From assembly GCA_000091205.1 (NCBI GenBank), contig AP006490.2: a stretch of 64,000 nt of DNA; one strand, 5' to 3'. The translations under genes and the position numbers were made by a program. The notes under the pieces were generated by a model. It was not told where the DNA came from, ran no database searches, and saw nothing but the letters and a program-made list of their open reading frames with translations. How positions within the stretch are numbered: position 1 is the stretch's first letter; every line of letters begins with the position of its first letter. This DNA is from Cyanidioschyzon merolae (Eukaryota). Positions 5,678-64,000 of the stretch are shown here, one piece after another.

Positions 5678-8600
5678 GGCGCACTGCCTTGTGCTCGACG
5701 CAGACGAACGCTGCCCAGACATGACCGGGTGTATCCGAATGAATAGGAGTCGTTCAAAACGTTCTGCGTAGAGCTGTGAATTCGGGGACACCTGGACTAG
5801 GACGCCTGTTCTGGTCCTGTTTGTTTTCTTGCAGGTACTCGGTAAAAGGAATGTTTCATGTTGATGGGAAAGAGGCTGCCGAGAGACTCTGTGGTGGAGT
5901 CACCGCCGGCCTGTGAAAACTGACCTTACCAGTCTTTCTCAGTATTGGAAGGGTAAGCGGGTGTATAAGCCACGCTTCCCGGAGTCCATAGTCTGAACAT
6001 GGTGTACCCCAATGAGAATGTATTAAACTCTATCTACACAGTTTGCTCCTCGTCAGCTCATTACAGTTTACAAATTTTTCTAAGGTATGCTGCGAGAAAA
6101 TGCAGAGTTTGTGAAGTTTCCGTATCTTTGGATTGAACATCGAGGAAGCGACGCAGGTACGCAAAGCCAAAAGCACCTATCTACCGCAGACTGTCGCGCG
6201 TTGCACAACTCAGTATCAGCTTCATAGGGAAACACGAGTGCTTACACTAGGTGCGACGGGCGTTCATCTGACTCGAGGCGACTTGATTCTAGAAAATGCT
6301 AGCCCTTCACACGGGTAATCCAAGTAGGGCAAACGTGGGTTGGTAATGAAGAAATAAGCGAACATAGCGACGACAGCAGTCCGAGCGGTGATTCCGTCGC
6401 ATGGTCTCTTACAAATCCGCACAGAGACAGTGTTTCTGAACACCGCGTACTTCGTCGAGGCACTGACCGTCGATTCTCCTTCGCATAGAGTTTTGTGCTG
6501 TTCTCGGACAGTGTGGCTCTCCACCTCTCAAAGTCGGCAAGGCGTATTCAGCTAGGATTCGCGTTGAGATGCTTTTCGTGTCGACCGATTTTCTCTGGTT
6601 CAATCCAGTCGAAGAGGTATTCGACTGTTGGTGTGGAAAGCCGTTTCTACGCTCATGTATTGAGAAAAGTTCCGTCTGCATACGGGGCACCTTTCTTCAA
6701 CAAGACGTTCTTCGGAACCTTCACCAGCATTGAACTGATTTTTTGCGTTATTGCTCATGCGTGGGCGGAACCAGAAAGGTGCGCTTCGGTCCGAGCGCTT
6801 GCTCGCTGGGAGAAAATCACGAAACGCAACGTGGAGTATAGTAGGTAAGCAGATGCAAAATGATACTTTCAGTCGGGTCGTCCACCCAGAAATTCGGATT
6901 CCTGAGAGAAACGGATACGGGTTACAGTGACCATATCAATGCTACACTGCCAAATAGAGGAGAAGGAGAAGAAAACGCCGGGCATAGAAAAGATACGATC
7001 CTTCCAAAAAGAAGACATGGAGGAACAGGAAGCATGAGCTCGCTTAGAAGCTGGGCGCAACTATGGGTCGCAAAGCCTCTTACTCGAGGAACGCTTGCCT
7101 TGCGCCACCCGCCGTGAAGCAGCTCGGCGAGCAACTGGTCACAGCAGTTCCAGTCACGTGGCTACAAGCTATCCATATTTCTCACTAATTTTTCGATGAG
7201 GCCTATGTGCGACAACAACAGCTGCTTTTCGGGGTGGACGAAGCGAAATGGCCGGATCGTTGGATCAGGGATTTCCTGACACAATTTCCTGGATACTTTA
7301 AAGCGTCACCGTGCCCCGCTGACGATCGGAATATATCCAGCGCAGGTCGGAAAAGTATCAAATCGATCGATGAGATTCGTTCTGAACCGGTCAAGATGTG
7401 CGAACCGAGAACCTTTTTGATGAACTTGGATTCCAGGCTGAAGAGTATACTGCCCGTTCCGTGAGCTCCACAGCACAAGGACAATGCCGAAGATCTGAAC
7501 GGAAACCATGTGAAGATGCTCTGCTACTCCAGGGCTCCATATTCTCGGAGTTTATATCTGACAGACACCAGTCAACATTCCAAAATGTGGAATGAAGGCG
7601 TCAGAACGCATGCCGACACCCCGTGCATCGTTTCGAGCGGAGGGCGGTGCTTTGTTTGCATCATTCAGCGAGGACGTGAGCTTCCGCATCGCTCATGCGG
7701 ATGACCCTTGGCAGTGGTATCTGAGGGTGCGCGGGGGTCGCCCGCGGTGTCCGTTGTACGGGAGCGAGTAGCTTGCATTCACCAATTTCTCCAACGGGTT
7801 GGAACGGGAAACGACGCACAAGTTGCGACGTTCGGTGGTATCTAAGGGCGCTGGTCGTGTTGGTGCGCGCCTGGGATGCACCCCTGGTCCATCGCCACGC
7901 TCGTGTTGAGAGCTCTGGGATTCATGCTCTCCGCTGCCAATCGACGAATTCGGGGCGGTATTCACGCATAACGTGCACGGTTGCACGCTGGAACTACGAG
8001 AGAAGGAGAGCGTGAAACGTAGCCAGCTGATGGAGATGGTGCTCGGTAAGCTAGCCAAGCATTACGTGGCGAGGAGTTTGAATACGATTGGCTTGCAATG
8101 ACGTGATTCCACCATCAAGAATGCACCCTAGAGGATTTTTCTCTGGGGTCTGAACGGTTCGAGCAGTATCCAGAAAAGTCTCGTGTTTTCTGAGCGTGTG
8201 GCGGCTTTGAATTTTGCAAAGTCTCGAAGAAGTCGTTTGGAGCTCGATTTGGGCCTTTTCTGATGCGTTGAAAACTTTCGAAGAAAAAAGGCAGTGCTCA
8301 GAAGCAAGAAAATTGGTTTCTCACCTAGTGCCCGGCACTGGTAGAGCACGGTCAGCGATCGAGCAAGGCTGGAGCACCCCATATATATTCCGGAACCGGA
8401 TTTTCCTGACGATTGGAGAACGCTAATAGTGGTTCATATTCGATATTACAGAGTATACGCAGGGCCTGGAAAAGGGTCGTCTTGGTTTATAACGCGTTGG
8501 GTGAAAATGCTCAGCTTTGTATGATTGCCATCACCCGCCTAGGCTCTGCGGGTCGCGCAACATACTCGTTAATGCCACGTTCCTCCGGGGGATTCCGGAT

Positions 8601-18249: not shown

Positions 18250-19096
18250 TCGGCCTCTTTAAAATAAGTTGCACTGCTTCCTCGAACCGCAAAAGCAAAT
18301 CAACGACTCAGCCGGTTCTCCCGGTAGTTTCGACCACGGCTTCAAACACGAGGAAATTTTGCCTCAAAGCGGCTGCTCCAGCCGCACCGCAAGAGGCGCA
18401 CCCCACGGAGCTTGCAACCCTTTTGGACGTAGCTTACAATCAGTTGGCTCGGACTTCCTTTCGGTGCAGCTATTCCCATTCTAACCATGGCTCGAGGCCG
18501 CATCCGCTCTTGTATTCTCTAACTGCACTTGAGTTCCACCCTCAGATGCGTATCATCAAATGCTTTTTCGCAGTTTATGGCGGATGCATTCGAAGTGCGT
18601 TCATTTTCAAACATAAAAAATCCAAGGGAAATCTATGGACATCGAAGGCGGGGATCCTCAAGGGCCGTCATTGCCGAGTCCCAGAAGAAAAAACGAAAAA
18701 ACGTCTTATCGCCTACCATCGAGTAAAAAAAGCAAGCGACGACGGCGAAGAAGAAGATGGGAAATAGATGAGAAAGGGTGCTCGCCCGACAGAACGATGA
18801 AGAGACTGTGGTAGCACTGAACCCACCACTTCGAGCAGTCCGTGTAACGGTGAGTCCAACCAGCAGTGCCGCACGGAGGAAGCTCGTGAACCGGGACATT
18901 AACGCTGCCACCAGTACCAGGACATGTGCGGTGCTGAAGACGAGACAACAGGAGCAGATGCGATCCAACTTTTTGGGGCCAGACTCATAGGGTCGACGTG
19001 TGCGCGAGGAAAAACTGAAACCAAAAGCAGGCGGCTCGTACAACTGCCTGGGAGGCGTCTGCGCTTGAGTAGATCTATATTGACCCTCCGTGGTGG
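18250..19096 (+). mobile_element. Fanzor/TnpB-like element remnant (copy e), 5'-truncated
   Basis: ORF 18778..18990 reads TVVALNPPLRAVRVTVSPTSSAARRKLVNRDINAATSTRTCAV, a decayed RuvC-III matching TVVAYRSRVLAILALMSSTRGNKRMEFVNRDFSVAINIRTCA of copy c. The upstream DNA at 18500-18700 aligns with 45800-45960. The 3' module is hairpin CAGGC..GCCTG followed by GGGAGGCGTCTGCG at 19027-19063. The 5' boundary is approximate. Confidence 0.5.
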
Positions 19097-28033: not shown

Positions 28034-31000
28034 CGCAGACACTCGGAGAGCCACTTGCCCGCCCAGAACAGGTCGTGGAAAACAACAGCAGTTGTACCCC
28101 TTGCGAAACGCGAGCCGAATCCACGGCTTGAGATTGATTGATCGATCGCACTGGACCTGCCCCGACGTGGCGACCCGGTTCTAGAGACAACGAGCGGCGA
28201 GGAGGAGCGCTGGCTGCAGCGCACAGCCGGTGCTGGGCCTTGCTTTTCCGCTGATATCGAATAGACGAGTCTGTACCCATGTCAGAATGGAATAGAACAG
28301 ACCCTTGATGCTAACTCGGAAGTGCACTGTAAAGTAATAGTCTCTTCCCTATGTCAGCGACACCGGGCTTCGGGGAATTTTTCTACGACTGCTTCCTCTT
28401 TCTCACTTTTATCTCCGGGTTGAAATCTGCCGGTCCATTCTTTCCCTGTATCCCCATGGTCAGCACTTGGTGGATGTGGATTGCAGCGTTAAAGTTCCCG
28501 TTTCGCAGATTCCGGCTGTTGTAGACGCATTTGATGTTCAGGTGGTGCTTGGAATCCGCGCACCTCCTGTAAAGTTAATCTTCTTTGTACATAGCATCCT
28601 CTTGAACTTTGGATCGGTGCGACTTTGCCGTGGTCAGGTGTTCTGACACATCCACCATGCGTCGTCCGAGTTCCAACGTATCGTGCGTGAACGCTCGCAC
28701 CATCGCTCGGATTGCACCCTAGACGAGTCCATAAGGCGCTCATCGATGCCCTCCTCGGTTTCCGTACCTAGTTTAGTACCCTACGATCGCATGCTACTTC
28801 TTGCCGATTTGCTTGGCGAGAACTCTGTCCGCTAGAGGCGCAAACGCTTCCTGTCTTATTCGGTAAGGGATTTGCAGCGCGCGATCTTGTAAATAATGAA
28901 ACGAGTTCCGGACGAAAATTTCGGGCTGAATTACAAGTCAGGCATACTCGATCCCTCTACGCTTCCTTCCCGCAAAGCGGTAACGCAAGCTCTACTGGAA
29001 GCGATCGCTTCAGTGACTGAGTTCCGAGGTCAACACATTGTTCCATGCAAATAGCAGAGATAGACCTCTTTGGTACCGGGTCCCGTTATAGGCCCTTGCC
29101 GGTGCCGGATTCCGTCTCGTCGCTGGCCAATAACCGCGATGGATTCGTATTCCGAACGTAATCGATAATTCGATGCGACAAGGTCACTAGTATTTCCGCA
29201 TAAACGTGTAAAGTTGGCGTCAACGGGTCACGTCGAGTTCTCTCCTCGTCAATCGAGCGGCCGAATCGCTGCGGCGACGAGTTGCCCCGAAACTGAAAGA
29301 TCGAAACCGTAACCACTTCGTGATTTGAGCCTGGTAAATGTAAGGAACGAAATCAAATCGAGATTGACACGCACGAATTTGTCGATCATAGAGGTCATCT
29401 TCAGAAACCGAAGTAGAGCGCATCGAGAATCATCTTCATGCCGGTTACGCGGAGAATTACTCCCGCAAAAGATTTGAAGGAGCCACGCTGACCAGGCAAC
29501 CAAACATCCGAAATCCTAGTAGGAATCGATAGGCCCTTATTACTGGGCTTTGAATGTCGAGGCTGTATATTCCAGAATAGTTCGGAAACAAATTGAAAGG
29601 CGGGAACTGAGCGAGGAATTCGGTGTTCCATTTTTGTACAACGTAGGCATAGTGAGACGTATTTGTCCACGTGCAAACTTCGTCCATTTTGAAGCCCTTG
29701 AGGAACTTCAAACAGAAACGGAGACATATCTTATAATGAACACTGGCGGATTTTGCATCGAGACGTGTTCGACGCGCCCTCTCGCAGAGAACTGGACCCC
29801 AAAAGTACCGTACGGGTTATCCAATTGATGCTCAATAGCACAGCAAGTGCGATACGAGTATCATGGGCACTTAATTTGCGCTGGAACCTTGCTCCACTTC
29901 GAAACCGTAATGATCAAAGAGCCACTGTCTCTATGCTTTTAAAAGGATGAAAATGTGCGTACAGCTGCTCGTCAGATCGCTGAGAACAGCATGCAATGGT
30001 ATCGTCTTAGATTGGATGCAAAATCTGAACCAACTTATTCTTCGGGAAATCCTCCAATCCAGCGCGAAACTTCGGCATCTAGATATGCGAAACTTCCGAA
30101 TACAAGAGATAGTGTGGCGCGAGTCTTCCGGCCTGCAGGTCCGGACCTGCGTAAGCCTTGTTTTGCGCGTCAAACGATCTGTGAGCGCCCCAAGTATAAA
30201 GTTCGGTGCTCTCGTGCAGCACACATTCTTATAGGACCCTTACAGACCCGATATCAATTCTTTGTATTCATCTATCTATTCATGCTCTATACTGGCGCTT
30301 TTCCATGCTATGAGAACTCTGAATACGACACACAATTAACCAACCTCAAAGTTTGAACACGTTAGCGTGAGGAAGTTTCCAGTGGGATGCTGTGATTGGA
30401 GCACGCCTGGAATATATTAGTGTGTACATACCTAGCATATTACTCCAGAGTCATGGACTGGCTCAGAAACACCACTCGATGGGGTTTTCTGATATGAACG
30501 GATATCTGCCTCATCGGCAAGATATTGTGCTTCACATGTGATTCGCATACGATATGCGGATCGTTAGGCGCGAATACGCAAATGGGGAGGCTTCAGAGAC
30601 GCCACTAGCTGGCTCTCGGTGATTATTACAACGGCCGTGGCACAAATTTCGCGGAAAATGATTCTGAATTCGCTTCCAACAGCTTCCTGAGCGCCAGTCC
30701 CTAACCAGATACGAGCAAAGTGCCGCCTGACATATGCCGAATATTCTCTAAGCCCGCAACGGTGCGATCAAAATGTCCTTCGTCGCACGCGCTAGTTGCC
30801 AGGGTGCATTGCGCGCATTTCCCAAGCCCCCGACTTCGTGAACTGCATCGAAATATTTTTTGTTCTTCAAAATTTTTGGATAGGAATATGAGCGAGGCAG
30901 CGAAACTTAGTTTTCCGGGTAGTTCATTCAACAAGTAATTCTAGAACATTATAGGGTGTAAGTGGCCATGAAGAATAACTTTTGCGGTGGACTCTGCCTA

Positions 31001-33739: not shown

Positions 33740-34450
33740 CTTCACAACTGTGGAGGGCAAATATGTCTCCCTACCCGCAGACCCGTCTCGCTCTTTTTCA
33801 ACCGGCGTCTTGCTATTGTTTTCAGCTTCTCCTTTTAACCTTCGAGTCTGGGAGACTGTCCGACAAAGTTGTCTCGCGTCAGCTCCTCGGGGCCCGACTT
33901 CAGCAGTATACATCGTCGGCTATTGATGGAGGCTTGAAGACTTAGTCCACGAATTCTATGCGTTCACTGCCTCAGGTGGAACTCATCTATGCAAGGATTG
34001 CTCGAACTCGAGCTCACTTTGCCGCCGCGGCCTCGTTATTGTCCAGTCGGGCAAGCCCTCTTTCACGACTTTCTCTCCCGTACTACTTCGTCGTCGTCAC
34101 TCATTCGTCTTCGCTCGATGGTTGGCAAGAAGAGGATTTTCGTCTTTTTCCTAGTCGCACGCGATGACGGCACTCCAGGATCTCAGACTTCCATTCCGAG
34201 AACATTCCCTTGGGTTTTTTGTTTTTGAAAATGAAATCACTTCGAACAAGTATGCTATAAACCTCGAGAAAGCATTTGATTATGCTCACCAGGGGGTGGG
34301 ACACAATTGAGGTGGAGGAATAAAATCCCTTCGTGGACGAATATCCGCTAACGGTTAGAGCTAGAATAAGAAAACCAATACGGAATTGAAGCCGTAAATG
34401 CCAGTGCATACTCTCCGATTCTCCACGCTTGATCCGCTTTTTCGCCATAT
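33740..34450 (-). mobile_element. Fanzor/TnpB-like element remnant (copy b), 5'-truncated
   Basis: Minus-strand frames match copies c and e: IIKCFLEVYSILVRSDFIFKNKKPKG vs IIKCFFAVYGGCIRSAFIFKHKKSKG, and YTAEVGPRGADARQLCRTVSQTRRLKGEAENNSKTPVEKERDGS vs the copy c tail. The 3' module on the minus strand (plus 33745-33805) reads GACGGGTCTGCGGGTAGGGAGACATATTTGCCCTCCACAGTTG. Confidence 0.5.
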
Positions 34451-45649: not shown

Positions 45650-46387
45650 GAGAGTTGGATAATGTTTTCGGTAATTTTGGGATCCCTTGTTCGTGGTCGT
45701 CGCGAAACATCTGGAGTCCGATGACTTGACAAATTCTGTCGGCAAAGTGTTGAAGGAGCCAACCTCAAAAGACAGCCGAGATTCTATAACGACGTATGAA
45801 TGCCAGAATCCTTCAAGTCTTTCACCTGAATTGCGTTCCAGCCTCAGGAGACTACAATCAAATGCTTTTTCATGGTTTATGGAAGATGAGTGCGAAGTGC
45901 GCTCATTTGAAGAAATAAAAATCCAAGGCAAAGGTATAGAAGTTGAAGCCCACGATCTTGGGGGCCCGCTGGCACCGGATTTGGAGAAACTACGAAAAAA
46001 AATCCTCATCTCGCCGACAATCTTGCGAAGAATAGCGAACGACGAAGAAGAAGAGAGGAGGTAGACGAGAAAAGGTGTTTGCCCTACTGGACAATGACGA
46101 GACTGTAGTGGCATATAGGTCACGAGTTCTAGCAATCCTTGCATTGATGAGTTCAACCAGAGGCAATAAACGTATGGAGTTCGTGAACCGAGACTTCAGC
46201 GTCGCGATCAATATCAGAACATGTGCGTTGCTTTACACGAGTCCCGAGAAGCTGGCCCAATTCCTTCTTCGTGGGACAACTTCTCAGGCTCGAAGTGTAC
46301 AAGGAGAAACTGAGACCGATAGCACTCGACCGGTCAAAAAGGACCGGGAGGTGTCTGCGTGTGGATATTAGTTACCCTACACGGTCG
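45650..46387 (+). mobile_element. Fanzor/TnpB-like element remnant (copy c), 5'-truncated
   Basis: ORF 46075..46371 carries an intact RuvC-III signature (GNKRMEFVNRDFSVAINIRTCA). The 3' module is CCGGTC-AAAAAG-GACCGG hairpin at 46330-46347, then GGGAGGTGTCTGCGTGTGG, ending ~46387. Frameshifted relative to copy d in its tail (46223..46507 frame). Confidence 0.55.
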
Positions 46388-50011: not shown

Positions 50012-50031
50012 TAGTGCCCTCGCGAACGCCA

Positions 50032-51501
50032 ATGACTAAACGACAATTGGCACTGTATATCGCGGTTTCCATGAAAGTGCTCCAAAGCTGTCGCTTCGGC
50101 CAGTTGCGAAAACTTTTGTTGATTATCGTGCTCGCTATTTACATAAGAGCGTCCATAGGCCTCTTCCCTTACTCTGGAGAGCACAGACCTCCAAGATTCG
50201 GAGACTATGAAGCGCACCGTTACTGGAGCGCAGTGACGCTGCACATGCGGCCAGTTGCGAACTGGTATACGCATCCCGGTGACTACTGGGTTATAGACTA
50301 CCCGCCCCTATCCGCTTATTTGGCTTTCGCTATTGGCATTTGCGCAAGACTTTTAGATTTTGAGGGCGCGGTGCAAGCCGACGCCTACGGTTACGAGAGC
50401 GAGTCGAGTCGTGCTTTCTTCCGGGGGACTGTGCTGCTTGTAGACTTGCTGTTCTTTTTCCCAGCAGCATATTTCGCGTCTGGTGGCGATCTCAACCGCT
50501 TTGCGTCCCTTACCCTGTTTCAGCCCTGCTGGATTTTGATCGATCATGCCCACTTTCACTACACATGTATCCAGCTAGGTTTCATCCTATGGATGATCGC
50601 GCGATATCGCACAATCAAGCTCACTATGATAGCGACAGCGGTGCTCTTCAAGCAGACATCCATCTACTTCCTGCCCGTCCCTGCAATGGACGCGCTGCGA
50701 CAGGCATGGAGGCGAGCGTTCCCAGACAACGATGTCCTTTTTTCCGTTCTTGTTGCTCTTTTCATCCTGTACCCGTTCAAGTTGGACGCTTTGTTAAGGA
50801 GGGTGTTCCCATTTCATCGAGGCGTTTTCGAGGACAAGGTAGCAACGTTTTGGTGTACAATATCGCCGCTGCTGCGTCGAACTGGGCTCCTACGGAGCAG
50901 GTTTCTGCCCCCAGCCTGCGGGCTCATGACCCTAGTGGCAGTTATCCCGTTTCTTATGGGCTCACCGGGTCGTTGTATTACGGAAAGCGATCGTCTTCGG
51001 CTATGTATTCGACTCACAGGGTGCTCGCTTGCGTTCTATCTTTTCTCGTACCATGTTCATGAGAAGCATATTCTCCTACCACTTTTGCCGCTATCGTTAT
51101 GTGCCCATGAGTATCCTGATATCATCATTTGGGCCACTTCCACGGCAGTATTCTCTCTCCTGCCTCTGTTTTTGCATGAAGGCTCAGCGATGGCGCTAGT
51201 AGCGCTGATAATTTGGACGTGTTTAGGAAGAGGTCGCCGTCCTTCTGTAGCCTGGATGCTTCTCGCCCTTCCTCTTGGAATACTTCTCGCTGTTGACGGG
51301 AATCCTTTTCGGGAACGTTATCCGTACTTGCTTCCTTACTTCGTTGCAATCTTCTGCTTCCTGAACTTTCTTATGCTCCTGCTTTGGTGTTACAAAGAGC
51401 ACGCAAAGTTGTCGGGTTGCTCTTTCACTGTCGAGGGCGCTCGGAACTTGTTGTTTCGCTCCTTGAATTTTTCGAGGGCTCCGCCACAAAAACTCTCATA
51501 A
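50032..51501 (+). CDS. ALG6/ALG8-family dolichyl-P-glucose glucosyltransferase (GT57)
   Basis: Multi-TM protein with GDYEAHRYW, WVIDYPPLSAY, LIDHAHFHYTCIQLGF and YHVHEKHILLPLLPLSL, matching ALG6/ALG8 signature blocks in order. The track start at 50014 is GTG; the first ATG is at 50032. Head-to-head with the FHA-forkhead gene: their first ATGs are ~20 bp apart. Confidence 0.8.
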   Translation: MTKRQLALYIAVSMKVLQSCRFGQLRKLLLIIVLAIYIRASIGLFPYSGEHRPPRFGDYEAHRYWSAVTLHMRPVANWYTHPGDYWVIDYPPLSAYLAFAIGICARLLDFEGAVQADAYGYESESSRAFFRGTVLLVDLLFFFPAAYFASGGDLNRFASLTLFQPCWILIDHAHFHYTCIQLGFILWMIARYRTIKLTMIATAVLFKQTSIYFLPVPAMDALRQAWRRAFPDNDVLFSVLVALFILYPFKLDALLRRVFPFHRGVFEDKVATFWCTISPLLRRTGLLRSRFLPPACGLMTLVAVIPFLMGSPGRCITESDRLRLCIRLTGCSLAFYLFSYHVHEKHILLPLLPLSLCAHEYPDIIIWATSTAVFSLLPLFLHEGSAMALVALIIWTCLGRGRRPSVAWMLLALPLGILLAVDGNPFRERYPYLLPYFVAIFCFLNFLMLLLWCYKEHAKLSGCSFTVEGARNLLFRSLNFSRAPPQKLS

Positions 51502-54500
51502 CGCTATGAGCCGGCACTACAGTGAGCGAGAAGCGTCGTTCCTGCCAAGTTTGGGGCGTAGGACACCATACCTCTTCCACCGCATCGTACAAGACGAGAT
51601 TCTTGAGACCGTCGACGCAGTAAAGCCTTCCTCTCACGCGCTGGCGCTCGTCCTGGAGCAGCACTAGAAGTTCACGGTGAAGCAGTGACTCAAGGAACGC
51701 CCTTCCTTCGTTCGCATTGTGGACGCCCATGAGTTTGTAGACGTCTCACCTGTAAAGCGAGATGCAAGAGCCTACGCAGCTACCGCTCTCAAAGTGAAGC
51801 ACATAGCTTGACGGCTAGCGCATTAAGATAACATTAATAGTTTGGATCTCTATTGTATGGGAACTCCGACCAGACGGAAGCTGCACACAAGCAGCAGCAC
51901 ACAGCCTGCCGTTCCTTGCACTCGAAAAAAACCTCATTTGTCTGCAGTGTTCCACGGGGGCGCCAGCCTCCCTCGTGGAGTGCGCACCATGGTGGCGTTC
52001 GCGAAAAACTTAATGTCCTCTTGTCTGAAGCCTGAAATCCCGTGTATTTATGGTGTATCAGTGCAAGTCTGAAAGGACATGCCCGTATACGCAAGCTCTG
52101 CCCGTGGTTAACGAGTGAAACTATGTTGTTTGACGCTTGCGATGGCATTGTTTAGCCTCCCTTTCACGGCCCGATCTAAGCGACTGTATCCCAAGCGCTC
52201 CAGCGAATGCCTCTGCTACGCCTGACAAACCGGGAAACCATGTCGTTAGATTGATCGAGCCTCCACATTCTCGGGTTTCATCATAAACTGGAACCGGTGG
52301 CTCGTAGGGACTCGTGTCAAGGTATTCATCCAGCCTTCACGCCGGGTGTTCATCTCCAAATGGAATTGGTTGAACGGAGGAGCGTCCGTGCTAAAGTCGG
52401 GATCTCCCAGTCGCTTTTATGTAGAGGAGTGAAATGCAGAACACGTATACAAGCACATTCCTCTCGGTCTTATTTATTTTTCCCATTGGTAGTCAACAAA
52501 ATCACTGTTGCGTTTGTACTAGAGAAAGACTGCAGAAAGACCTGATGCCCTCATTGCTGGACATCGAACAAACCGGCTTTACCTCTACAAGCCAGTTATT
52601 TGATGCTAAGCATGTGGACCTACCGCCCTTCTCGTAGTCCTCATTCTGAGCACCGAGCACCAAAAGCAGTACTCATCAGTCGCTATCTACACGACTGTCT
52701 CCTCCTCAATCATTTCCACTCGATTCTTTTTCGAAGAAAGACTACTGAGGAACCCACAAAACGGTGATCACCCTTTTCGTCCATACGAAGGAGACAAAGA
52801 AACACGGACTGATAGCAATAAAATCGCGCTTCTAGAGGAGACCGTCGAGGTTTTTTGCAGTATGCTGTCGCTTTGCGAATGAAATGAGAACGTTCGTTAC
52901 GGTACGGACGGTTGTTCGTCTCATTTGATGCGGCTTCATTCAGGAGAAATGCTAGACCTATTAATAGGTAATCAGAAGAGTGCAAGCGAATGCTATTAAA
53001 GCCGAGAGGAGCGAGAAGGACGATAACAGCTCTAATCGCGATTCAAACATATGGTTGCGTCCAAATTGTCCAATGGACATTATTGTGCAGCACCGTATCC
53101 TTCACTGAAGCACTCATCCAGTCTTTCTTCATACATTCTTGTGTCCTGCTATCAGACAGCATCGATTCCCTTGTCTTAAAAGAGGGCAATTGTACGCAGG
53201 CAGGATTCGCACTCAGCTGCTCTTCGTCCCAGCATATTATCCCTGGTTGTGTCATGTCGTCAGCATTAACCACCTTGTCAAACGACACTTCTACCCTACA
53301 GCTGCAGTAGACGAGTCAATCGCAACTGTTGCACCATTCTTCGAAGAGTCTTTGAAGGAGAATTTGTGTCCAGTGTTCATTTGTCCTGAACTGATTTGTG
53401 GCTCCTCTGCTTGTCGCCGGGAAAGAGCCGAAAGGCTCGCAAAGTTTCGATATCTTTCTCGCGATGTGGTAAGTGACGAAGATATTCCTGAAGATTGATA
53501 AGCTACAGCGTTGGACATGATGGAGTGCGCAATGCCCGTGCTCATACTCCTTCCAAAAGAGCATAGAACGTGTGAAGAAAATCTATTCTCTACGATTTTC
53601 ATCGATGAGTTCAGGTTGACACACGCATTACGAGCGCGGATGCACGCTGAAACTGATACGGAAGTCGACAGTGCAACAGGAGCCGATACACGAGCTGTTG
53701 TATGGTAAACTGACCAACAGCGAGATTACGAAGCCATCAAAGGCAAGAGACTTGATATTACGTGATTTCAGTAGTAATTATGCGCACGAGCACCTTCTGC
53801 ACAGAGACTTGAAAGCTCTGATCAAAATCCGGAAATGGTCCCGGCCTCCAGAGCGCCCAGTTCCTTTATGCCAAGCGAAATTTCGAGCAATTGTTTTTTG
53901 CACAGTGTGGTCACGAAGTTGAAACGAGAATGATTTGCCATTATAAGAGTCAATTGCAAAGAGAGAGGACGGTGGATTCTCGCACGGAGTGAGGTACTAG
54001 AATGGTACGGTCCACATTTCAAGGCTGGAGCGCTATTTATCCAACGCAAATGGCGTCGCTGGGCACTTAGCAGACGATAATGGTGTTCATTTGTTCGATA
54101 TTACTGAGCATGCATATAGCTATCCCTGATTTGGCAAATTTTAATTACACTCATCGATTCTGCAGCCGAAACTCTACGACATCTGGCCTTCCCAAAGCGC
54201 GCGCGTCAGTCATATTATCGAAAAGACGCTGGTCTGCTACAATTTGGCTTGCTTGTTCTGCTCCCCGATCGAGACTCTTCGTAAGAGTTTGCTCGCAAAT
54301 ATCAACCGCTCTGGCTGTATCGAACGTCGCTTTGGTACAGGCGTCTATGATGTTGATGTCCGCAAGGCCCTGCTAAGCTAAAACCAAACGTTTCACGACG
54401 ATCGAGGAAAGCTTTTCAAACGAAACGCTGCATATTCGTGGGAGAGTTTGTATCGAGATTAGGCGTATTGCACCGATCGAGCATCGAGAAATAGACGACG

Positions 54501-55572: not shown

Positions 55573-56337
55573 TTATAGCGCACATCTAGACATGCTTGCT
55601 TTGATCGCGCGCTCGAGAAGAACCAAGTGCGACTCTAGTACCCACCGTCTGTGCCCCCACAGCGCCGACAATGGCTCGGATGATTGACTGCGTTCGCCTA
55701 TGATGATGCAGTAATCTGAGGTTTCCCTCAGGTGATAAACCGATAGTTGGAAGCCGCGTGAACCAGTGATGCTCCACATCCTATGTCCGAAATGATTCAA
55801 ATTCATGCAATCATCATCTCGTGACGTGTATCGTGCGAAACGGTGCCGGGGAGCGCTCAGAACATCGAAAATTGTATCCGCAGCATACGCTGCAGATGCG
55901 AGAAAGAGGGGCCCTATCATATCACTTACGTTATTTTCACCGCTGTCCGTTGCAGCGCAATAGCTAGCCAATACTTTGGAATCGCTCTTTCGCAGGAGGA
56001 GCGCCCGTCTAACGTTTCGGTTACGAAACGTCTCGTCTATCCAGCTCGCGAAAATTGAGCTAATATCGTGCTTCCCCTCCGATGAGGCCTCTGACGAAGT
56101 TTTCGGCGCGTCTGCGATCGCGTCCCTACTTTCAGCGGAGACTTGCGAAACTGACAGACCGGTGCAGTGCGCTTTCGTTTCGCCCGGCAGCTCGTTCGCC
56201 GGCTCCTGCTGCGGTGCCTGAGGTGTGTCGTTACTTAGTGCTTCGAGATTTGCTGGTAGTCCACCACGGTTCTCAGTCCCAAAGTCCCTTTCAACGGCCA
56301 AGCAGGGAAAACAGGTCCTGAGTAACCGCGAAGTCAT
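55573..56337 (-). CDS. hypothetical protein (~254 aa)
   Basis: 285-codon track ORF starting at a TTG (56430) that overlaps the last codons of the Fanzor-like ORF in another frame. The first ATG is at ~56337 (MTSRLLRTCF...). No recognisable domain. Lies immediately downstream of, and co-oriented with, element copy d. Confidence 0.4.
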   Translation of the reverse strand: MTSRLLRTCFPCLAVERDFGTENRGGLPANLEALSNDTPQAPQQEPANELPGETKAHCTGLSVSQVSAESRDAIADAPKTSSEASSEGKHDISSIFASWIDETFRNRNVRRALLLRKSDSKVLASYCAATDSGENNVSDMIGPLFLASAAYAADTIFDVLSAPRHRFARYTSRDDDCMNLNHFGHRMWSITGSRGFQLSVYHLRETSDYCIIIGERSQSSEPLSALWGHRRWVLESHLVLLERAIKASMSRCAL

Positions 56338-56422
56338 GCTGAGAACCCGCTGCCGACAGCGAACGCCTTTCAAAAGAAAAACGTTGCTGCCGGCGGTGGA
56401 CAGGAGCAGCGAGGAAGCCGCC

Positions 56423-57252
56423 CTAGACAAGACGTCTCCAACTTACGTACAGACGCCTCCCAGTCTCTTTCGACCGGCCACCCACTACTGGTTCCAACTT
56501 TTTCTCATATAATCCTACCTTAAGCGGTTGTCCAACAAAATATTCTCTTGTCAACTCCGGAGGTCTTCTTTCCATCACCGCACATTTCCTTATATTGATA
56601 GCGGCGTTAAAGTTTCGATTCACAAACTGCATGCGTTTCTTGCCATTGGTAGTTGGACTCACTAGTGCAAGTAGTCCACGAACTTTCGTCCTCCTTTCCA
56701 CTTGCTCTTTCGTCAGCGCTCCGAACATTTTTATATCCTCAGGGGTCTGCTGGCACTTTTCATCTCCAATCTCTGACGTTTACACCCCAATTGGTGGTGT
56801 GTATTGGTCGTTCGGAACTCATCTATCGGTATCGTGACGAAACGGTATGCGCACTCCTTGTACGCTCGTGTCGTTGGAGATGGCGCACACCTTTTTTTCG
56901 ACGCCCAGCGCCTTGCTCCGTATGCCACTACGAGCCTCTGACTCTTGTGCTCCTTCAGGGCGCTCAACTGATTGAAAAAGTTCGCGAGCGCGCGCCGCTT
57001 CCCACAATACAGGTTCACACGCAGAGGAGCCCACCGGCGATTTGTATACTCTTTCCACAGCGCCTCCCAATGAGCAGCGCGAACTTCCATGAATTTCAGA
57101 AAAGTCTGAAAGTCCGCTCCGCGGCTCGTCACCTCGCTCATAGCTTCCAGGTGGTCCTTCATTCCTTCGTTCCACATCTCGATTTTCTTCCTCGCATTCA
57201 TCATACCGGATTCTCGATAGTATCTCGCTCTCGAGAGCTTTAAAAGACGCAT
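56423..57252 (-). pseudogene. Fanzor1/TnpB-like RuvC nuclease C-terminal region (RuvC-II + RuvC-III), frameshifted or intron-containing
   Basis: ORF 56731..57252 ends ...QRLVVAYGARRWASKKRCAPSPTTRAYKECAYRFVTIPIDEFRTTNTHHQLGC. This aligns with ISDra2 TnpB, as I recall it, at ..VVEDL...LEYKAKWYGRELIIADRFFPSSKLCSNCG. The canonical RuvC-II E is replaced (VVAYG) and a D-E sits in the pre-zinc-finger IDEF position, which matches the Fanzor1 pattern. ORF 56423..56728 carries GKKRMQFVNRNFNAAINIRKCA (RuvC-III, D/N-x-NAA-x-NI). The two ORFs are in different frames, and the zinc-finger cysteines are largely missing. Confidence 0.6.
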
Positions 57253-58556
57253 GTCTTTCTGACTTAAGTTGCCTTCAATGCCTCTTCCGCGCGCTTGGGT
57301 GCTGCGATGGCTATAATATTCGTGTTTCTGGGGTCCGCGCCAACGACAACGTCGTTCTCATGTACTTCTCGCGTCGCATGACCCGCCTCCTTCTCATCTT
57401 CATGCTTCGCCGCATCAACGACAAAGTCGGTCTCCTGCACCTCCTGCGTCGCAGGTTCCGCATCCTTCTTTTCTTCATGCTTCGCCGAGTGCGAAGCCGA
57501 AGACGGAACTGGACGATCCGCCTTCAAGAGCCGATAGTGTGCACATACGGGTACTCCATCGCTTTCGGTTATCCCCGTGAATATCTTTTTCTTGCCCTTA
57601 TTGAGACGTTTGAAGTCGGATATAGTTTTCCAAGAAGTCTAGAGGTTTCCACCAATAGATGCCTCCCCGCTTACATCTAACTCCGAACTGATCTCCAGCA
57701 TTACGTTGTGAATGTCGCTGGCGTCGATTGTCACAAAATGTGACTTGACGCCGCCGAGAGCAACGACGCTGAAGCGCCTCTCCGGAAACACAGCCATCCG
57801 TTTCGCCGACTCTCTATTTTCCCCCTACTCATCTGCAGTTCGGCCTTGCGTTCGAATTCTCGGTTCAGGAACACGAAATAGCGCAGGATGAGGGGATAAT
57901 ATCTTTTTCCATATCTGATACCTATTCTGCTGGGCTGACCAGCCCCAGGACCGCACGGTGCTCTTGAGCAGCCGCAGGGATCACAGAAGCTGCATTCGTG
58001 CTCTTGGTTGATGTCTTCTTGTCGACAAATTCGATCTCCTGTCCATTCTTACTATCGTTCGTGATGCTGGCAATGATGGTCCATCTCGCCCAGTGTGAGA
58101 CGCCCAAGTAGAGAGCAAAATTGGAGCGTTTCATGAAGCGTTCCAGGTTCATGGCCATATGGGTCTTTAGGTTCGTGAGGGACTTGATCGCCCCGTATTC
58201 GTAAATACGCGAGTCACCCCTCTATCGAGTACCGTTGAAGCGGTAGTTGGAGTGATGTTCGTGGAGGGCATGTAATCGCTCATTTCTCATCGACATTTAC
58301 CCTGTGCCAAATATTAGGTCACCAATAAAGGTCTTGTTGAAAAACTCTTCCGGAATCTCGAATATTTTGATGTGCGTGACGTCGCGATACATCTCCCTCG
58401 CCATATACATCAGTCCCAAAGAGGCGTAATTAACACTCCTGGAGTACGACTCCACACGGTTTCTGACGGCCTTTTGCGTCTCTTGCTCGTAGGGGTCCTT
58501 GATATGTCCAAGAAGACAGGCGTTCACTACCATCTCGTCGTACTCTCATCTTTCAT

Positions 58557-59698
58557 GCAGCATGTGACATCGGACCTCCTGCATCTGCTTCTTCGTTTTC
58601 TCGTGTTCCTCTTTGCTCGGCGCGGTTTTTCTTTTTTTCCCGGCGGCCGGCAACATCGGCCCTTCAGGATCCCGACTTGCATGTGCGCTGCTTTCCTTTG
58701 GCGTTTTTATTTCGTCAAGATGATCGCACGTCTTCTTGCTCTTAGATGGGGCCTTCTCGGAGGGAGGGGGACTTTCGCAAGAAAAGCGACATGTGCCCCC
58801 ATGTTTTAGCGTGTGCAGAACGCTCAGCGATTTACCCAGCGCAGTGTTCATCAAAATTCTCGATAGAAAACGCTCCTTAGATGCGGCCGAACCACGGCGT
58901 GTACGAAGTAATGAGAAGCAACCCTATCCCTACAGATTCGGCAAAGACTCGAACGCAAGGGGAACGGTAAAACATCACGTTGCCCGACAGAGGGATGTTT
59001 CCAGACGTCAGGGGAAGAGTCTGCAATGATTCGACGCAGTGGTCGGTACCGTTGTATGACCGCTATCTACGAGCGAAGCTGAGGCCACCAGATGAATCCA
59101 CTCCACCCGTACCAGATGATATTCTCGTTCTCTTTGAGTTCGATCATACACACTATGGGCGCCCTGCTCCGCGAATACCCATGTACGCTCCGACAGTATC
59201 GTCCGAAGCAAGTCTCATTGACTAGAAAAACAAATCGATGCCCCTGCGCTTCAAACCGATCGCGACGATCCGAAGACGCTGTTGTTGCGATGTCGTTGGA
59301 CGATGGCCGAGCGTGAAATTGGTATTCGTTTTTCCGACTGTATCGCAGTGATTTCAGGACCACACGAACAAGCTGGTGAGTAAGAGAGACACCCGTTGTG
59401 GCTTCTATCATCGCTTTTGCCTTCCACGCGGTGATGAATCGGTTGTTTTTTACCACGGACCCCAAGCACGCTTTGTGAATATCGGTTTTTTGATACGGAG
59501 CGGGTGTAGTGGTTTCTTTCGGTGTTCCTCAACCAGCTGAGTACTCTCGAAAGACTGACCTGAAGGAGGAATACATTACTTGCACGCTTCAGTCAAGGAT
59601 ATATATCCTACATGCAAATCGCCTATGTTCTATACGGTACATTGCAGAGTGATATCGATCTCCTCCTATACACTGCAGCAGGGGTGAAACGTAATTGA
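58557..59698. repeat. left arm of a long inverted repeat (identical at the protein level to 62859..64000)
   Basis: All ORF pairs mirror with x+y=122557 and identical translations: 59251..59532 with 63025..63306, 59067..59465 with 63092..63490, 59092..59316 with 63241..63465, 58980..59225 with 63332..63577, 58736..59029 with 63528..63821, and 58372..58809 with 63748..63993. The inner junction, checked base by base, is TCAATTACGTTTCACCCCTGCTGCAGTG. The arm probably extends further left; the window end limits the comparison. Confidence 0.9.
59067..59465 (-). pseudogene. Tc1/mariner-like transposase fragment (in left inverted-repeat arm)
   Basis: ...ITAWKAKAMIEATTGVSLTHQLVRVVLKSLRYSRKNEYQFHARP...HRFVFLVNETCFGRYCRSVHGYSRSRAPIVCMIELKENENIIWYGWSGFIWWPQL shows an HTH followed by the DDE_3 first-D region. 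The first D is mutated to N (NET, against DDT in the 2578 copy). Truncated. Confidence 0.5.
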
Positions 59699-59996
59699 GT
59701 TGAAAGAGCGCAGCTGGGAACATCGACTGTGTCGCAGTTCGCGCGCCCTGTACCGCCATTGAAATCATCGCGATCGCCGCGCTAGCGCGGGACACCATCG
59801 ATCCGATCCGCATGGCAGCTCGCGGGACGTCATCGATCCAACGGAAAACTATTTTTCGACGGACTGCTCGCATCATGAGGGTCTTTGAGAGCCTCAAATA
59901 TTAGGCTGAAGTGAAGTTTCGCTAACAATTTGGGTCCTTGCTGCTTTAAGTTGAGGTGTTTTGGTTTAGTGAGCACCTCATCTTGGGACGAATTGG

Positions 59997-62300
59997 ATGA
60001 TCCCCCGAAAACTTCCAACCAGCGAAACTCGATCGAAGCCTCCGAGCTTCGGCCATAGAGCTGGACAACGTCACCGCACGCAGCTTGTGGAACGTCAGGG
60101 AGGTCAGGAGTGGAAACACGATCATTTGGGAGAGTCCACAGAAGGCCGGTCGGTTTGTTCCTGTGAAGCTTGCCGGACACTGAGCCTAGCCGGTTTCCCG
60201 AACAGCAGCAACAGCAGCAACAGCAGCAACAGCAGCAGCAGCAGCCTCTCTGAGCTCGAGGACCGTCCACAGTGTATTGGTGGCTACTCTAGTTCTAGTG
60301 GTGGGGCCGCAGAAGGAGTCGATCAATACGTATGGGAACTGCATGAGGGTTTCAATATGGGGACACCAACCCAAACAATACAGCGTCCTGCTGAGTGTCC
60401 TAGCTTCGGTTACGGTGCTTTTCGTTCCAGACGAGCAGACTCTGGAAGCGAGCCCCTTGCTAATGAACCACTCGAAACCATGCGGGACCTCTCCATTCAT
60501 GATGCCGCGTCTCATGATACGCAAAAGCTGCCATCGATGAAGCACCGCGCTGGAGACGTGAGCTCAGTTACTGTTCCGTCAACGAATGCTAAATTTGCGG
60601 TAGCAGGGCATTCGGATGCACCGAAAATTTTCAGTTCTCCTGAGGCGGAAGCACGCCTACTGCCCTGTAGCTCATACGCAGACTCGGCTACAACGGGCTC
60701 TTCTTCATTGCATGAAGGCTTGGTTCAGCTTGATGTTGTCGATTATCGAATGCGCATAGTCTCGAAACAAATTTCGAGCAGCATGCCTGTCTACGAAACT
60801 AGGCAACTCTCAACGTCCCGCGCGAGTTCTCGGAACACGGCGGTGCTTGGACGTCTCTGGTCAGTCGCGTCACTTGGAGTCAACAGACCTAATGAGGACC
60901 GTTGGCACGTAGAACGCCAGCGTCTGATATGCGATTTCCAGTCATACGCGCCTTTCAAGCTTTCGCAAGCCAGTCTAAGATCTGAGGCGGGCACAAGCTC
61001 GGTCGCCGCTCTCAAAAGCGTGAAATGCAGCGGATCGGCTGTGGGTTTCACACGACCAGCAACTCCGCCTGGGAGTCACGATGTGGCAGAGTGTGAAGTC
61101 GCTGACTGCGACAGCGGTTTCGAATCTGATGACTCGTTTACGGTGGGCTTGTTTGATGGACACGAAGGAGCCACGTGCTGCGAGCTAGTTGGCGAACTGC
61201 TTCTAGAAACGATTCGAGACCGATGCACTAAGAATGGAAAATATACGACTATGCTCCAGGAGCTTGGAATTGAAGGCTTTGCAAGATGTCTGATAGAGAC
61301 GTTTGAATTTGTCGACAAGAAGATCCTGGAGCTCCTCTGGGAACATCTAGAGCGAAGTGGCGACGGACATTTTGCAATAACAGGAGCCTGTTGCATAACA
61401 GCAACGCTGATGAATGGTGGAAGGGATCTCTTCGTTGCCTCGCTAGGAGACTGTGAGGCCTATTTGGGCCGTCGATGTTGCGCGGCTGCGGAGCTCCCGC
61501 ATCCTCAAGAAGGAGCGAATAAGCGTATGGCTCGAAAAAATTTCGAAGCGATTCGGCTGTGTCGCTCACATAATCTTCGAATCAGCGAGAATTCGAAAGC
61601 TCTCATGGAGCGGTTTCCCAACGATCCCTCCGTAGTGCAGAAAATAGGCAATAATTTTTTCGTCAAAGGCAAGCTGCAGGTATCGCACGCCTTTGGAAAT
61701 GGATACCTGAAAGAGCAAAGATTCAACGAGCGACTCTACCCTATTTTTAGGGCGAAGTCACCTTACTGTGGAGGATACGTGTCCGCAACTCCGCATGTTG
61801 AGCATGTGTCCTTGATGGATCGGGACGAATTTCTGATTTTAGGAACGGATGGATTCTGGGAGAACGCTGAACCAGAGGTAGTCGTCGAGCTTTTGGGTCA
61901 CTTTTTTCACGATCGGGAGATTCTGGAGGGGAATCTAGACCAGATCTCAATAGATCCAAGAAGGGCAAGCGAGCTCTTGATGCAGTACGTGTGGCTTCGC
62001 CTCCACGACAGTATAGAACCCGCGAGCTTGCGTACAGCGGGCCAGACTGGTGGCAAAAGCAGTGGAAGCTGTGCTGCTGAGCCGCGCCCTCAGCTTCGTG
62101 ACGACTGCTCAGTTCTGGTTTTATTCCTCCGTCCAACGGAGATCGGGGATGCAGAAGAAGCCATATCATACACAGGCAATATGGATTGTACAGATTTTTG
62201 TGAGCAACTAGATGGTGATACCAAGGAGCGCATTCAACGTCTGCGAGCATCGATTTCCGAATGGATGCGCACATATGGCGAGCATTCCGATGAAATATGA
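59997..62300 (+). CDS. PP2C-family Ser/Thr protein phosphatase with long disordered Ser/Asn-rich N-terminal half
   Basis: 767 aa with a confirmed ATG. PP2C motifs in the C-terminal half: FTVGLFDGHEGATCCELV, LFVASLGDCEAYLGRR, QVSHAFGNGYLK, FLILGTDGFWENAEPE. The N-terminal half is low-complexity (NSSNSSNSSNSSSSS). Lies entirely within the 3.16-kb spacer between the inverted-repeat arms. Confidence 0.85.
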   Translation: MIPRKLPTSETRSKPPSFGHRAGQRHRTQLVERQGGQEWKHDHLGESTEGRSVCSCEACRTLSLAGFPNSSNSSNSSNSSSSSLSELEDRPQCIGGYSSSSGGAAEGVDQYVWELHEGFNMGTPTQTIQRPAECPSFGYGAFRSRRADSGSEPLANEPLETMRDLSIHDAASHDTQKLPSMKHRAGDVSSVTVPSTNAKFAVAGHSDAPKIFSSPEAEARLLPCSSYADSATTGSSSLHEGLVQLDVVDYRMRIVSKQISSSMPVYETRQLSTSRASSRNTAVLGRLWSVASLGVNRPNEDRWHVERQRLICDFQSYAPFKLSQASLRSEAGTSSVAALKSVKCSGSAVGFTRPATPPGSHDVAECEVADCDSGFESDDSFTVGLFDGHEGATCCELVGELLLETIRDRCTKNGKYTTMLQELGIEGFARCLIETFEFVDKKILELLWEHLERSGDGHFAITGACCITATLMNGGRDLFVASLGDCEAYLGRRCCAAAELPHPQEGANKRMARKNFEAIRLCRSHNLRISENSKALMERFPNDPSVVQKIGNNFFVKGKLQVSHAFGNGYLKEQRFNERLYPIFRAKSPYCGGYVSATPHVEHVSLMDRDEFLILGTDGFWENAEPEVVVELLGHFFHDREILEGNLDQISIDPRRASELLMQYVWLRLHDSIEPASLRTAGQTGGKSSGSCAAEPRPQLRDDCSVLVLFLRPTEIGDAEEAISYTGNMDCTDFCEQLDGDTKERIQRLRASISEWMRTYGEHSDEI
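60201..60246 (+). repeat. (AGC/CAG)n-type trinucleotide microsatellite inside the PP2C coding region
   Basis: AACAGCAGCAACAGCAGCAACAGCAGCAACAGCAGCAGCAGCAGC encodes NSSNSSNSSNSSSSS. The opposite strand gives the poly-Cys artefact ORF 59830..60270. Confidence 0.8.
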
Positions 62301-62858
62301 ACATCAGCACAAACCTGAAGATGCAGCCAGTCGTGCATATTGTGAAGCGGTCTTCTCGTTCCTAGTTGTTACTGCAGGAGATTGCTTGTCCGGCTGATGC
62401 TGGGTCTCACGTATGTTAAGGGCGAGAGCAATCAAAGTGTAACCTCCGTCGAATGACAAAGGGAGCGCAACGATTGCACCTCTGTGGAACGCGGAACTCA
62501 CTGCTCTCAACGCTTCGCAGAACGACGTGGGCCATCAGCTCGGTGCGCATGTTTGCTTTGCAGCTCTCGAGAATCAAATGAACTGCTGGCGTAGCGCAAA
62601 ATAGTGCCCAATTCGCGCGCTAGTGCTTGCGTAAATTTACAAATCGTCGGGATAGAGAATTTCTCAAGTCGGCGTCAGAACAGCCCGTTCTGCCACAATC
62701 CTACACGGTGCAGCTCCACATAAAACCCTTTTCCCAACCGATCCACGAATCCGACAAGACTTTTGCTCACTTGTGGCGCAATTCTGCGAAACATGGACTG
62801 AGCAAAGGAGAAGAAGGAGCCTGTCGCTTATTCTCGTGTACAACTAACGTCTTTCGAA

Positions 62859-64000
62859 TCAATTACGTTTCACCCCTGCTGCAGTGTATAGGAGGAGATC
62901 GATATCACTCTGCAATGTACCGTATAGAACATAGGCGATTTGCATGTAGGATATATATCCTTGACTGAAGCGTGCAAGTAATGTATTCCTCCTTCAGGTC
63001 AGTCTTTCGAGAGTACTCAGCTGGTTGAGGAACACCGAAAGAAACCACTACACCCGCTCCGTATCAAAAAACCGATATTCACAAAGCGTGCTTGGGGTCC
63101 GTGGTAAAAAACAACCGATTCATCACCGCGTGGAAGGCAAAAGCGATGATAGAAGCCACAACGGGTGTCTCTCTTACTCACCAGCTTGTTCGTGTGGTCC
63201 TGAAATCACTGCGATACAGTCGGAAAAACGAATACCAATTTCACGCTCGGCCATCGTCCAACGACATCGCAACAACAGCGTCTTCGGATCGTCGCGATCG
63301 GTTTGAAGCGCAGGGGCATCGATTTGTTTTTCTAGTCAATGAGACTTGCTTCGGACGATACTGTCGGAGCGTACATGGGTATTCGCGGAGCAGGGCGCCC
63401 ATAGTGTGTATGATCGAACTCAAAGAGAACGAGAATATCATCTGGTACGGGTGGAGTGGATTCATCTGGTGGCCTCAGCTTCGCTCGTAGATAGCGGTCA
63501 TACAACGGTACCGACCACTGCGTCGAATCATTGCAGACTCTTCCCCTGACGTCTGGAAACATCCCTCTGTCGGGCAACGTGATGTTTTACCGTTCCCCTT
63601 GCGTTCGAGTCTTTGCCGAATCTGTAGGGATAGGGTTGCTTCTCATTACTTCGTACACGCCGTGGTTCGGCCGCATCTAAGGAGCGTTTTCTATCGAGAA
63701 TTTTGATGAACACTGCGCTGGGTAAATCGCTGAGCGTTCTGCACACGCTAAAACATGGGGGCACATGTCGCTTTTCTTGCGAAAGTCCCCCTCCCTCCGA
63801 GAAGGCCCCATCTAAGAGCAAGAAGACGTGCGATCATCTTGACGAAATAAAAACGCCAAAGGAAAGCAGCGCACATGCAAGTCGGGATCCTGAAGGGCCG
63901 ATGTTGCCGGCCGCCGGGAAAAAAAGAAAAACCGCGCCGAGCAAAGAGGAACACGAGAAAACGAAGAAGCAGATGCAGGAGGTCCGATGTCACATGCTGC
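62859..64000. repeat. right arm of the long inverted repeat (second, inverted copy of the Tc1-like/Fanzor-like element; truncated by the window edge)
   Basis: Mirror image of 58557..59698. Contains the Tc1-like fragment (63092..63490 +) and the start of the KRKT-rich ORF (~63703 onward, open to the window edge). Confidence 0.9.
63092..63490 (+). pseudogene. Tc1/mariner-like transposase fragment (in right inverted-repeat arm)
   Basis: Amino-acid sequence identical to 59067..59465 on the opposite strand. Confidence 0.5.

Follow-up and report, generated by a model that had tools for sequence, protein, structure and literature searches.

At one end of the 64,000-nucleotide (nt) stretch of Cyanidioschyzon merolae DNA analysed here (assembly GCA_000091205.1, contig AP006490.2; hereafter the window), a gene encoding a PP2C-family protein phosphatase lies between two inverted copies of a mobile element, which we call E. 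A repeat search of the window reported a single inverted pair, 58557-59707 and 62850-64000, with arms of 1151 nt. Base-by-base comparison found perfect complementarity over 1142 nt, between 58557-59698 and 62859-64000, and inward of this perfect part a further 9 nt containing two mismatches, at 59699 (G/T) and 59701 (T/C). An earlier reading of the locus, made from the sequence alone, had placed the perfectly identical arms at 58557-59698 and 62859-64000, and direct comparison shows both the coordinates and the identity to be exact. The outer limit of the visible repeat is set only by the end of the window, position 64000 mirroring position 58557. A repeat of this length cannot have arisen by chance. 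The features that make up the structure are the following; contigs designated by L numbers are the related sequences described below.

58557..59698, no strand assigned: left arm, perfect part visible in the window (repeat search and direct comparison)
56354..59707, minus strand (sense): left copy of E, matched to CMe-1A-type Fanzor1 (collinear with contigs; CMe-1A consensus match)
59708..62849, no strand assigned: unique spacer of 3142 nt, the segment that could invert
59997..62300, plus strand: PP2C-family protein phosphatase gene, 767 amino acids (aa), intact (Pfam PF00481, E-value 2.7e-17)
62850..64000, plus strand (sense): right copy of E, cut by the window end, perfect from 62859 (repeat search; full-length in L004, L010 and L013)

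The spacer, 59708-62849, holds PP2C as its sole credible gene. The sequence-only reading had likewise assigned it exactly one gene, PP2C at 59997-62300, and the Pfam PF00481 match confirms that assignment; no transfer RNA gene and no Rfam family was detected between 54 and 64 kilobases (kb), spacer included. An exact look-up of the phosphatase protein gave no match. Its best homologues occur at 98% identity (a JGI metagenome protein), 53% (a metagenome protein) and 42% (the red alga Cyanidiococcus yangmingshanensis), the Cyanidiococcus orthologue being CCYA13G3617; these matches place the window in a cyanidialean red alga, a group of acidic hot springs. The gene is intact in all contigs, with amino-acid changes falling outside the catalytic domain, and to judge from its coding sequence it looks functional. 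A Ser/Asn-coding trinucleotide repeat (SSNSSNSSNSSSSS) at 60200-60260, PP2C codons ~70-85, varies in length among strains. The protein has 767 aa in the window and 771 aa in L005, L006 and cluster members.

A genuine repeat, longer than the window reveals

Related contigs were collected by means of PP2C, a 101-aa open reading frame (ORF) near the outer end of the arm, and gene X, a neighbour of the left copy. This yielded ~40 independent metagenome contigs with 98.9-99.9% identity to the window. Read across all of them, the outer end of E has just two flanks, one carrying ERCC4 (side A) and the other carrying X and Alg6 (side B), and the inner end has just two neighbours, the 5' end or the 3' end of the PP2C spacer. 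Each of the four junctions was seen in at least 8 samples. This agreement among independent assemblies shows the repeat to be genuine and widespread, and not a misassembly. A fold-back or chimeric artefact was also considered and ruled out, since independent assemblies repeatedly contain the 3.1-kb unique spacer together with both of its junctions. The suggestion that the structure might be an assembly artefact thus fails for the repeat itself and retains its force only for the orientation of the spacer, which is still exposed to assembler ambiguity.

The same contigs establish the length of the arms. The left copy of E is 99% collinear with L001 and matches, as reverse complement, the right copies of L004, L010 and L013. 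Both L004 and L010 run from the end of the left arm through the spacer into a right copy that extends for 3350 nt, as far as the position corresponding to window 56358; L001 carries the full left copy, the spacer and then 394 nt of the right arm. Since the right copy runs for 3350 nt in L004 and L010, the true arms are ~3.35 kb rather than 1.14 kb long, and the whole structure measures ~9.85 kb (arm 3.35, spacer 3.14, arm 3.35). That the right copy would continue past the window had been proposed from the sequence alone, and it is indeed complete, with both element ends, in L004, L010 and L013. For the window's own chromosome we predict ~2.2 kb more of E beyond 64000, with an end of the ...CGCCTTTCAAAAG type in reverse complement, followed by the promoter side of ERCC4 with the extra CGAAAG hexamer present in L001, L009 and L013.

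The arms also leave their mark on how assemblies end. PP2C contigs from metagenomes are mostly 3.1-3.7 kb, the size of the spacer, because assemblies break at the arms. One contig consisting only of E, L014, spans exactly 59698..56358, and at least 23 side B contigs recovered through gene X, one of them 56 kb long, end 117-340 nt inside E.

The arms are copies of a degenerate Fanzor1 element

CMe-1A is a Fanzor1 element of ~3.2 kb with ~150 copies in C. merolae; it is without terminal inverted repeats, and its target-site duplications were left undetermined (Bao & Jurka 2013, Mob DNA 4:12, PMC3627910). The 3169-bp CMe-1A consensus and the 734-aa CMe-1 protein were taken from the supplement of PMC3627910, on which the family label Fanzor1 rests. 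Two coding remnants can be recognised within E:

56426..58671, minus strand: Fanzor1 (CMe-1 family) pseudogene (tblastn, CMe-1 protein)
59070..59528, minus strand: IS630/Tc1-mariner-type transposase fragment, helix-turn-helix (HTH) and start of the DDE domain (phmmer)

By blastn, consensus 871-3169 aligns to window 58729->56364 at 80-87%, with consensus 2120-3169 corresponding to window 57411-56364 (87.0%) and consensus 871-2196 to 58729-57410 (80.6%). Residues 7-734 of the CMe-1 protein align by tblastn piecewise, in three reading frames, at 56-80% identity and with at least 4 frameshifts. The RuvC-I motif VVGADP and the RuvC-II motif IDEFRTT are kept in E; RuvC-III reads NRNFNAAINI, with RN where the family has RD (the family alignment gives GADPGN, VDEFRTS and NRDFxAAIN). 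Pfam and PDB sequence searches returned nothing significant for the frameshift-corrected Fanzor-like protein, for its intact relative P0020 or for a 33-sequence profile, and an AlphaFold2 model of P0020 had a mean predicted local distance difference test (pLDDT) score of 36, too poor for a fold search. Judged by its alignment to the published consensus and protein, E is a degenerate CMe-1A-type Fanzor1 element. The same metagenomes contain intact CMe-1 relatives, up to 752 aa long, in which the catalytic motifs are all complete. Among P0020-P0052, many CMe-1 relatives are assigned by precomputed database annotation to Pfam PF26935, a family that the Pfam copy searched did not contain. Within the pseudogene, just upstream of RuvC-I, a 75-nt tandem duplication of 80% identity (57335..57484, no strand assigned) repeats a 25-aa acidic segment that is present as a single copy in the published consensus.

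The 5' end of the left copy (59707) is directed toward PP2C and its 3' end (~56358-56364) toward gene X. The 5' terminus, TCTTTCAAC, is common to five other degraded copies in the window, and for this reason the inner edge of the arm is a genuine element end. A search of E together with direct reading of its junctions found no inverted pair joining the two ends, no target-site duplication was found at the junctions read, and a comparison of six copies showed no conserved motif next to their 5' ends. E lacks consensus positions 1-790, including the TE-N2_CMe module (the 5' 635 bp common to CMe-1A and TE-N2_CMe), and its 5' terminus corresponds to consensus ~795-835. Because consensus 1-790 is missing, E is a subfamily variant of CMe-1A.

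At its 5' end E carries instead a 0.9-kb module that is not in the published consensus and contains the IS630/Tc1-like transposase fragment. The fragment, 153 aa long, comprises an N-terminal HTH and the start of a DDE domain whose first Asp is changed to Asn. A phmmer search against 1.8 billion representatives gave 104 matches, of which those of ~300 aa, distant full-length relatives, are Pfam DDE_3 proteins with HTH_Tnp_Tc3_2 and HTH_33; the fragment itself matches HTH_33 only (E-value 0.052). E as a whole has neither the complete DDE_3 transposase nor the terminal inverted repeats of the Tc1/mariner-IS630 group, and its flanks (...GCTGC-E-GCGCAG...) show no TA target-site duplication. The description of the arms as two inverted copies of a Tc1-like/Fanzor-like element is therefore borne out by the consensus, tblastn and phmmer matches, without making E a Tc1/mariner element. 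Its size of ~3 kb, its want of terminal inverted repeats and of a recognisable target-site duplication, and the many degraded copies in the window are all in keeping with the CMe-1A family; it departs from that family in the 0.9-kb module that replaces the 5' ~790 nt of the consensus, in its broken coding sequence and in the RN that stands for RD.

Further copies and related repeats are scattered through the window. At least six degraded CMe-1A/Fanzor1 remnants lie at 3279-3563, 7414-8197, 18534-18978, 33772-34310, 45816-46363 and 53620-53883, and three of these, at ~18.5, 34 and 46 kb, resemble short derivatives with an internal deletion that joins consensus ~790-969 to ~2849-3084. The segment 42588-43198 has 78% identity to the first 640 bp of the CMe-1A consensus and represents a copy of the TE-N2_CMe type, a separate family of ~70 copies (Bao & Jurka, PMC3627910). 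The inner 0.9 kb of the arm, the IS630/Tc1-like module, occurs a third time at 2290-3191 (71% identity), in the orientation opposite to that of the left arm; this copy shares the 5' terminus of E and is followed by the Fanzor remnant at 3279-3563. The two copies of E share 6-10 nt, TTCGCT(GTCG) on the element strand, past the published 3' end of the consensus (56354-56363; L001 ~4230-4245), and in the ERCC4-linked copy the hexamer is duplicated (TTCGCT on the element strand, CGAAAG as read on the plus strand of the window). These shared nucleotides may mean that the subfamily end is longer, or they may be flanking sequence that was co-duplicated. The ERCC4-side contigs L001 (1-102) and L009 (7164-7331) end in sequence 96-97% identical to window 28685-28852, which is probably a further dispersed repeat that interrupts assemblies.

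Arm identity probably reflects gene conversion

The sequence-only reading had offered two causes for the identity of the arms, a very recent inverted duplication or ongoing gene conversion. The related contigs distinguish between them. All related strains have the same structure, and their spacers diverge by 0.7-1.1%; because strains this far apart all possess it, the arms are older than the strain split. In L001 and L005, 14 differences separate the two arms over the inner 394 or 324 nt, a divergence of ~3.6-4%. Since this exceeds the 0.7-1.1% seen between strains, the arms were once more diverged than the strains now are. In L004, L006 and L010 the arms are mosaics of the left-arm and right-arm allele sets, and the left arm of the window carries the right-arm allele at every diagnostic site except 59699 and 59701. 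Arm-to-arm gene conversion typically leaves some divergence behind at the edges of the arms. With inner ends that differ by 3.6-4% and are mosaic in related strains, the perfect identity fits arm-to-arm gene conversion that, in the lineage of the window, has reached nearly to the edge of the arm, rather than recent duplication.

A very recent inverted duplication, in which the arms would be identical for lack of time and no conversion would be needed, can claim in its favour the perfection of the match over 1142 nt and the fact that both copies share the same frameshifts and the same 6-10 nt past the consensus 3' end. We nevertheless consider it distinctly unlikely: the same structure, with its four junctions, in strains 0.7-1.1% apart means that it predates their split, the divergence of the inner arms in L001 and L005 is more than three times that between strains, and the mosaics of two allele sets in other contigs are at odds with arms that never diverged.

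PP2C is inverted at its ancestral site in this assembly

The gene order around PP2C was compared with that of two outgroups, Cyanidiococcus (L003) and L002, in which the order is ERCC4(-) PP2C(+) X(+) Alg6(-) FHA MT-A70. No CMe-1 sequence was found near PP2C in either of them. Two neighbouring genes of the window anchor the comparison on side B:

55573..56337, minus strand: gene X, 254 aa, the ancestral downstream neighbour of PP2C (BLASTP to Cyanidiococcus)
50014..51501, plus strand: ALG6/ALG8 glycosyltransferase gene, side B synteny anchor (PF03155, E-value 2.2e-69; tblastx to L002 and L003)

Gene X matches over its full length the 253-aa gene that adjoins PP2C in Cyanidiococcus (BLASTP, E-value 3e-53). 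Relative to the outgroups, X, Alg6, FHA and MT-A70 match the window in reverse and PP2C matches in forward orientation (BLASTP, tblastx). Because the side B genes match in reverse and PP2C in forward orientation, gene order indicates that PP2C occupies its ancestral syntenic site and is inverted relative to side B in this assembly. The 5' end of PP2C points toward X and Alg6 in the window, and toward ERCC4 in the outgroups and in L001, where the order ERCC4-E-5'PP2C preserves the ancestral orientation. L013, with the order 3'PP2C-E-ERCC4, is the same isomer as the window. Inversion of PP2C relative to side B is the outcome expected of recombination between the arms, and we regard a genuine inversion in the genome of the window as probable. 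Polymorphism of spacer orientation within the population is plausible, though unproven. The proposal that such a structure can invert the enclosed gene is accordingly upheld in that PP2C is inverted relative to two outgroups and that L001 has the other orientation; it is held back in that both orientations rest on assemblies.

The ATG of X lies 17-27 nt from the 3' end of E, and that of ERCC4 178 nt from it (L001 4052-4230). Both Fanzor reading frames point toward these outer genes. For X at least, transcription may rely on signals within the element.

The syntenic position of PP2C also bears on the idea that the arms and the gene form a composite mobile unit, that is, a composite transposon in which two elements mobilise PP2C as cargo. 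A gene between two inverted mobile-element copies does resemble a bacterial composite transposon. PP2C, however, sits between ERCC4 and X/Alg6 just as it does in two outgroups that are free of the element, and both elements are frameshifted pseudogenes with a mutated RuvC-III motif. An arm-PP2C-arm unit at another location was looked for among the contigs, and every contig with PP2C or with the 101-aa ORF of E maps to the single locus. A composite transposon is on these grounds extremely improbable.

A recombination model for the locus

The explanation that we consider likely is that two dead copies of E act as an inverted repeat whose arms are homogenised by conversion and whose crossovers flip PP2C. 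Two inactive 3.35-kb CMe-1A-type Fanzor1 copies would occupy the intergenic regions on both sides of a resident PP2C, head to head, with their 5' ends facing the gene. The homologous-recombination machinery of the host would pair the two arms; the nucleus of C. merolae carries out homologous recombination very efficiently (PMC11376382). Non-crossover repair, that is gene conversion, would keep the arms identical, in the strain of the window to within 9 nt of their inner ends, and resolution by crossover would flip the spacer, the window representing the flipped isomer. We infer that the two orientations were made by recombination rather than by assembler choice and, because both copies are pseudogenes, that E itself plays no active part.

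Several observations weigh against this model. Short-read and consensus assemblers are unable to phase the outer flank with the spacer end over ~3 kb of identity, and attempts to phase them by means of single-nucleotide polymorphisms inside E failed, the variants being strain-level and not copy-specific; the gene X contigs, which all stop within the first few hundred nt of E as described above, carry no phase information. L013 has single-base Ns exactly at the arm-variable sites and may be a collapsed path, and L001 could likewise be an arbitrary assembly path. It is from L013 alone that the right copy in the window is inferred to be flanked by ERCC4, the sequence past 64000 lying outside the window. 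The mosaic arm alleles could in part be consensus chimeras of co-occurring strains, since they come from metagenome contigs. Finally, the two copies may have arisen either by two insertions or by one inverted duplication.

Taken together, some of these points give substance to a different explanation, in which the repeat is real and both the identity of the arms and the flipped orientation are products of assembly, a collapsed node having been used twice along an arbitrary path. Most short-read assemblies do break at the arms, collapsed contigs of E alone such as L014 exist, the Ns of L013 coincide with arm-variable sites, and two contigs join ERCC4 to opposite ends of the spacer, as arbitrary paths would. 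The contig of the window, however, extends across one 3.35-kb arm and the spacer and 1.15 kb into the second arm, which suggests that long-range information went into it, unlike the at least 23 short-read contigs that halt 117-340 nt into the arm. The ends of L014 at exactly 59698 and 56358 show that there are populations in which the arms are identical over their full length, and the two inner-end mismatches are retained in the window. We judge an assembly origin of these two features to be unlikely.

The sequence-only reading had further suggested that the repeat might produce hairpin RNA that silences its flanks; the targets could be the element family or the neighbouring genes. Read-through of both arms would give a double-stranded stem of 3.35 kb. 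Against this, C. merolae and Galdieria are without Argonaute and Dicer, and RNA interference (RNAi) does not work in them (PMC11376382); moreover, the Fanzor frames in the two arms point outward, so that no single transcription unit is expected to run over both. Hairpin-mediated silencing is for these reasons highly improbable.

A more active role for the element family can also be imagined, in which PP2C would lie on a flip-flop segment whose orientation continues to change in natural hot-spring populations of a eukaryote that lacks RNAi, and RNA-guided cuts by Fanzor1, in addition to spontaneous breaks, would drive the unusually thorough homogenisation of the arms. We consider this very unlikely. 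In such a scheme, to which we give just as little credence, intact CMe-1 copies elsewhere in the genome would cut at or near the element ends and repair would proceed from the other arm. Homology-directed copying promoted by the nuclease has reportedly been proposed for bacterial TnpB. If true, the scheme would constitute natural evidence of Fanzor promoting homology-directed copying in a eukaryote.

Comparison with known systems

Under the recombination model that we favour, the locus represents a familiar genome structure and adds no new mechanism. A suspected assembly artefact proved to be real, and it could be explained from public metagenome contigs alone, which gave the true length of the repeat, its four junctions, the ancestral orientation and the signs of gene conversion. 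In cyanidialean genomics, the locus offers a case in which degraded CMe-1A-type Fanzor1 copies would supply portable homology through which the gene order of a very compact genome is rearranged, and it is a locus that short-read assemblies always break or mis-orient.

By analogy with systems described elsewhere, the structure would be a standard recombinogenic inverted low-copy repeat built from a known transposon family. In human Xq28, inverted repeats of 11.3 kb flank FLNA and EMD, and int22h repeats lie at F8; both flip the genes that they enclose. The C. merolae locus resembles them in having two arms of several kb with more than 99% identity, in enclosing one or two intact host genes, in the apparent occurrence of both orientations and in homologous recombination between the arms as the likely mechanism. 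It differs in that the arms are transposon copies, that the host is a unicellular alga and that the orientations come from assemblies, not from direct typing.

The human Y palindromes P1-P8 and the flip-flop inverted repeat of plastids are kept by arm-to-arm gene conversion. Here too the arms are near-identical although they are older than the split of the lineages that carry them, and the residual divergence is found at the arm edges. In contrast to those systems, the C. merolae locus is smaller in scale, its 3.35-kb arms contain no functional genes, and no selective benefit is implied.

Insertion sequence (IS) elements in bacteria and Ty elements in yeast mediate inversions. As in those cases, two inverted copies of a mobile element would provide portable homology for host recombination, the difference being that the element is here a Fanzor1 with an IS630/Tc1-like fragment and that the inverted segment is a single gene in 3.1 kb.

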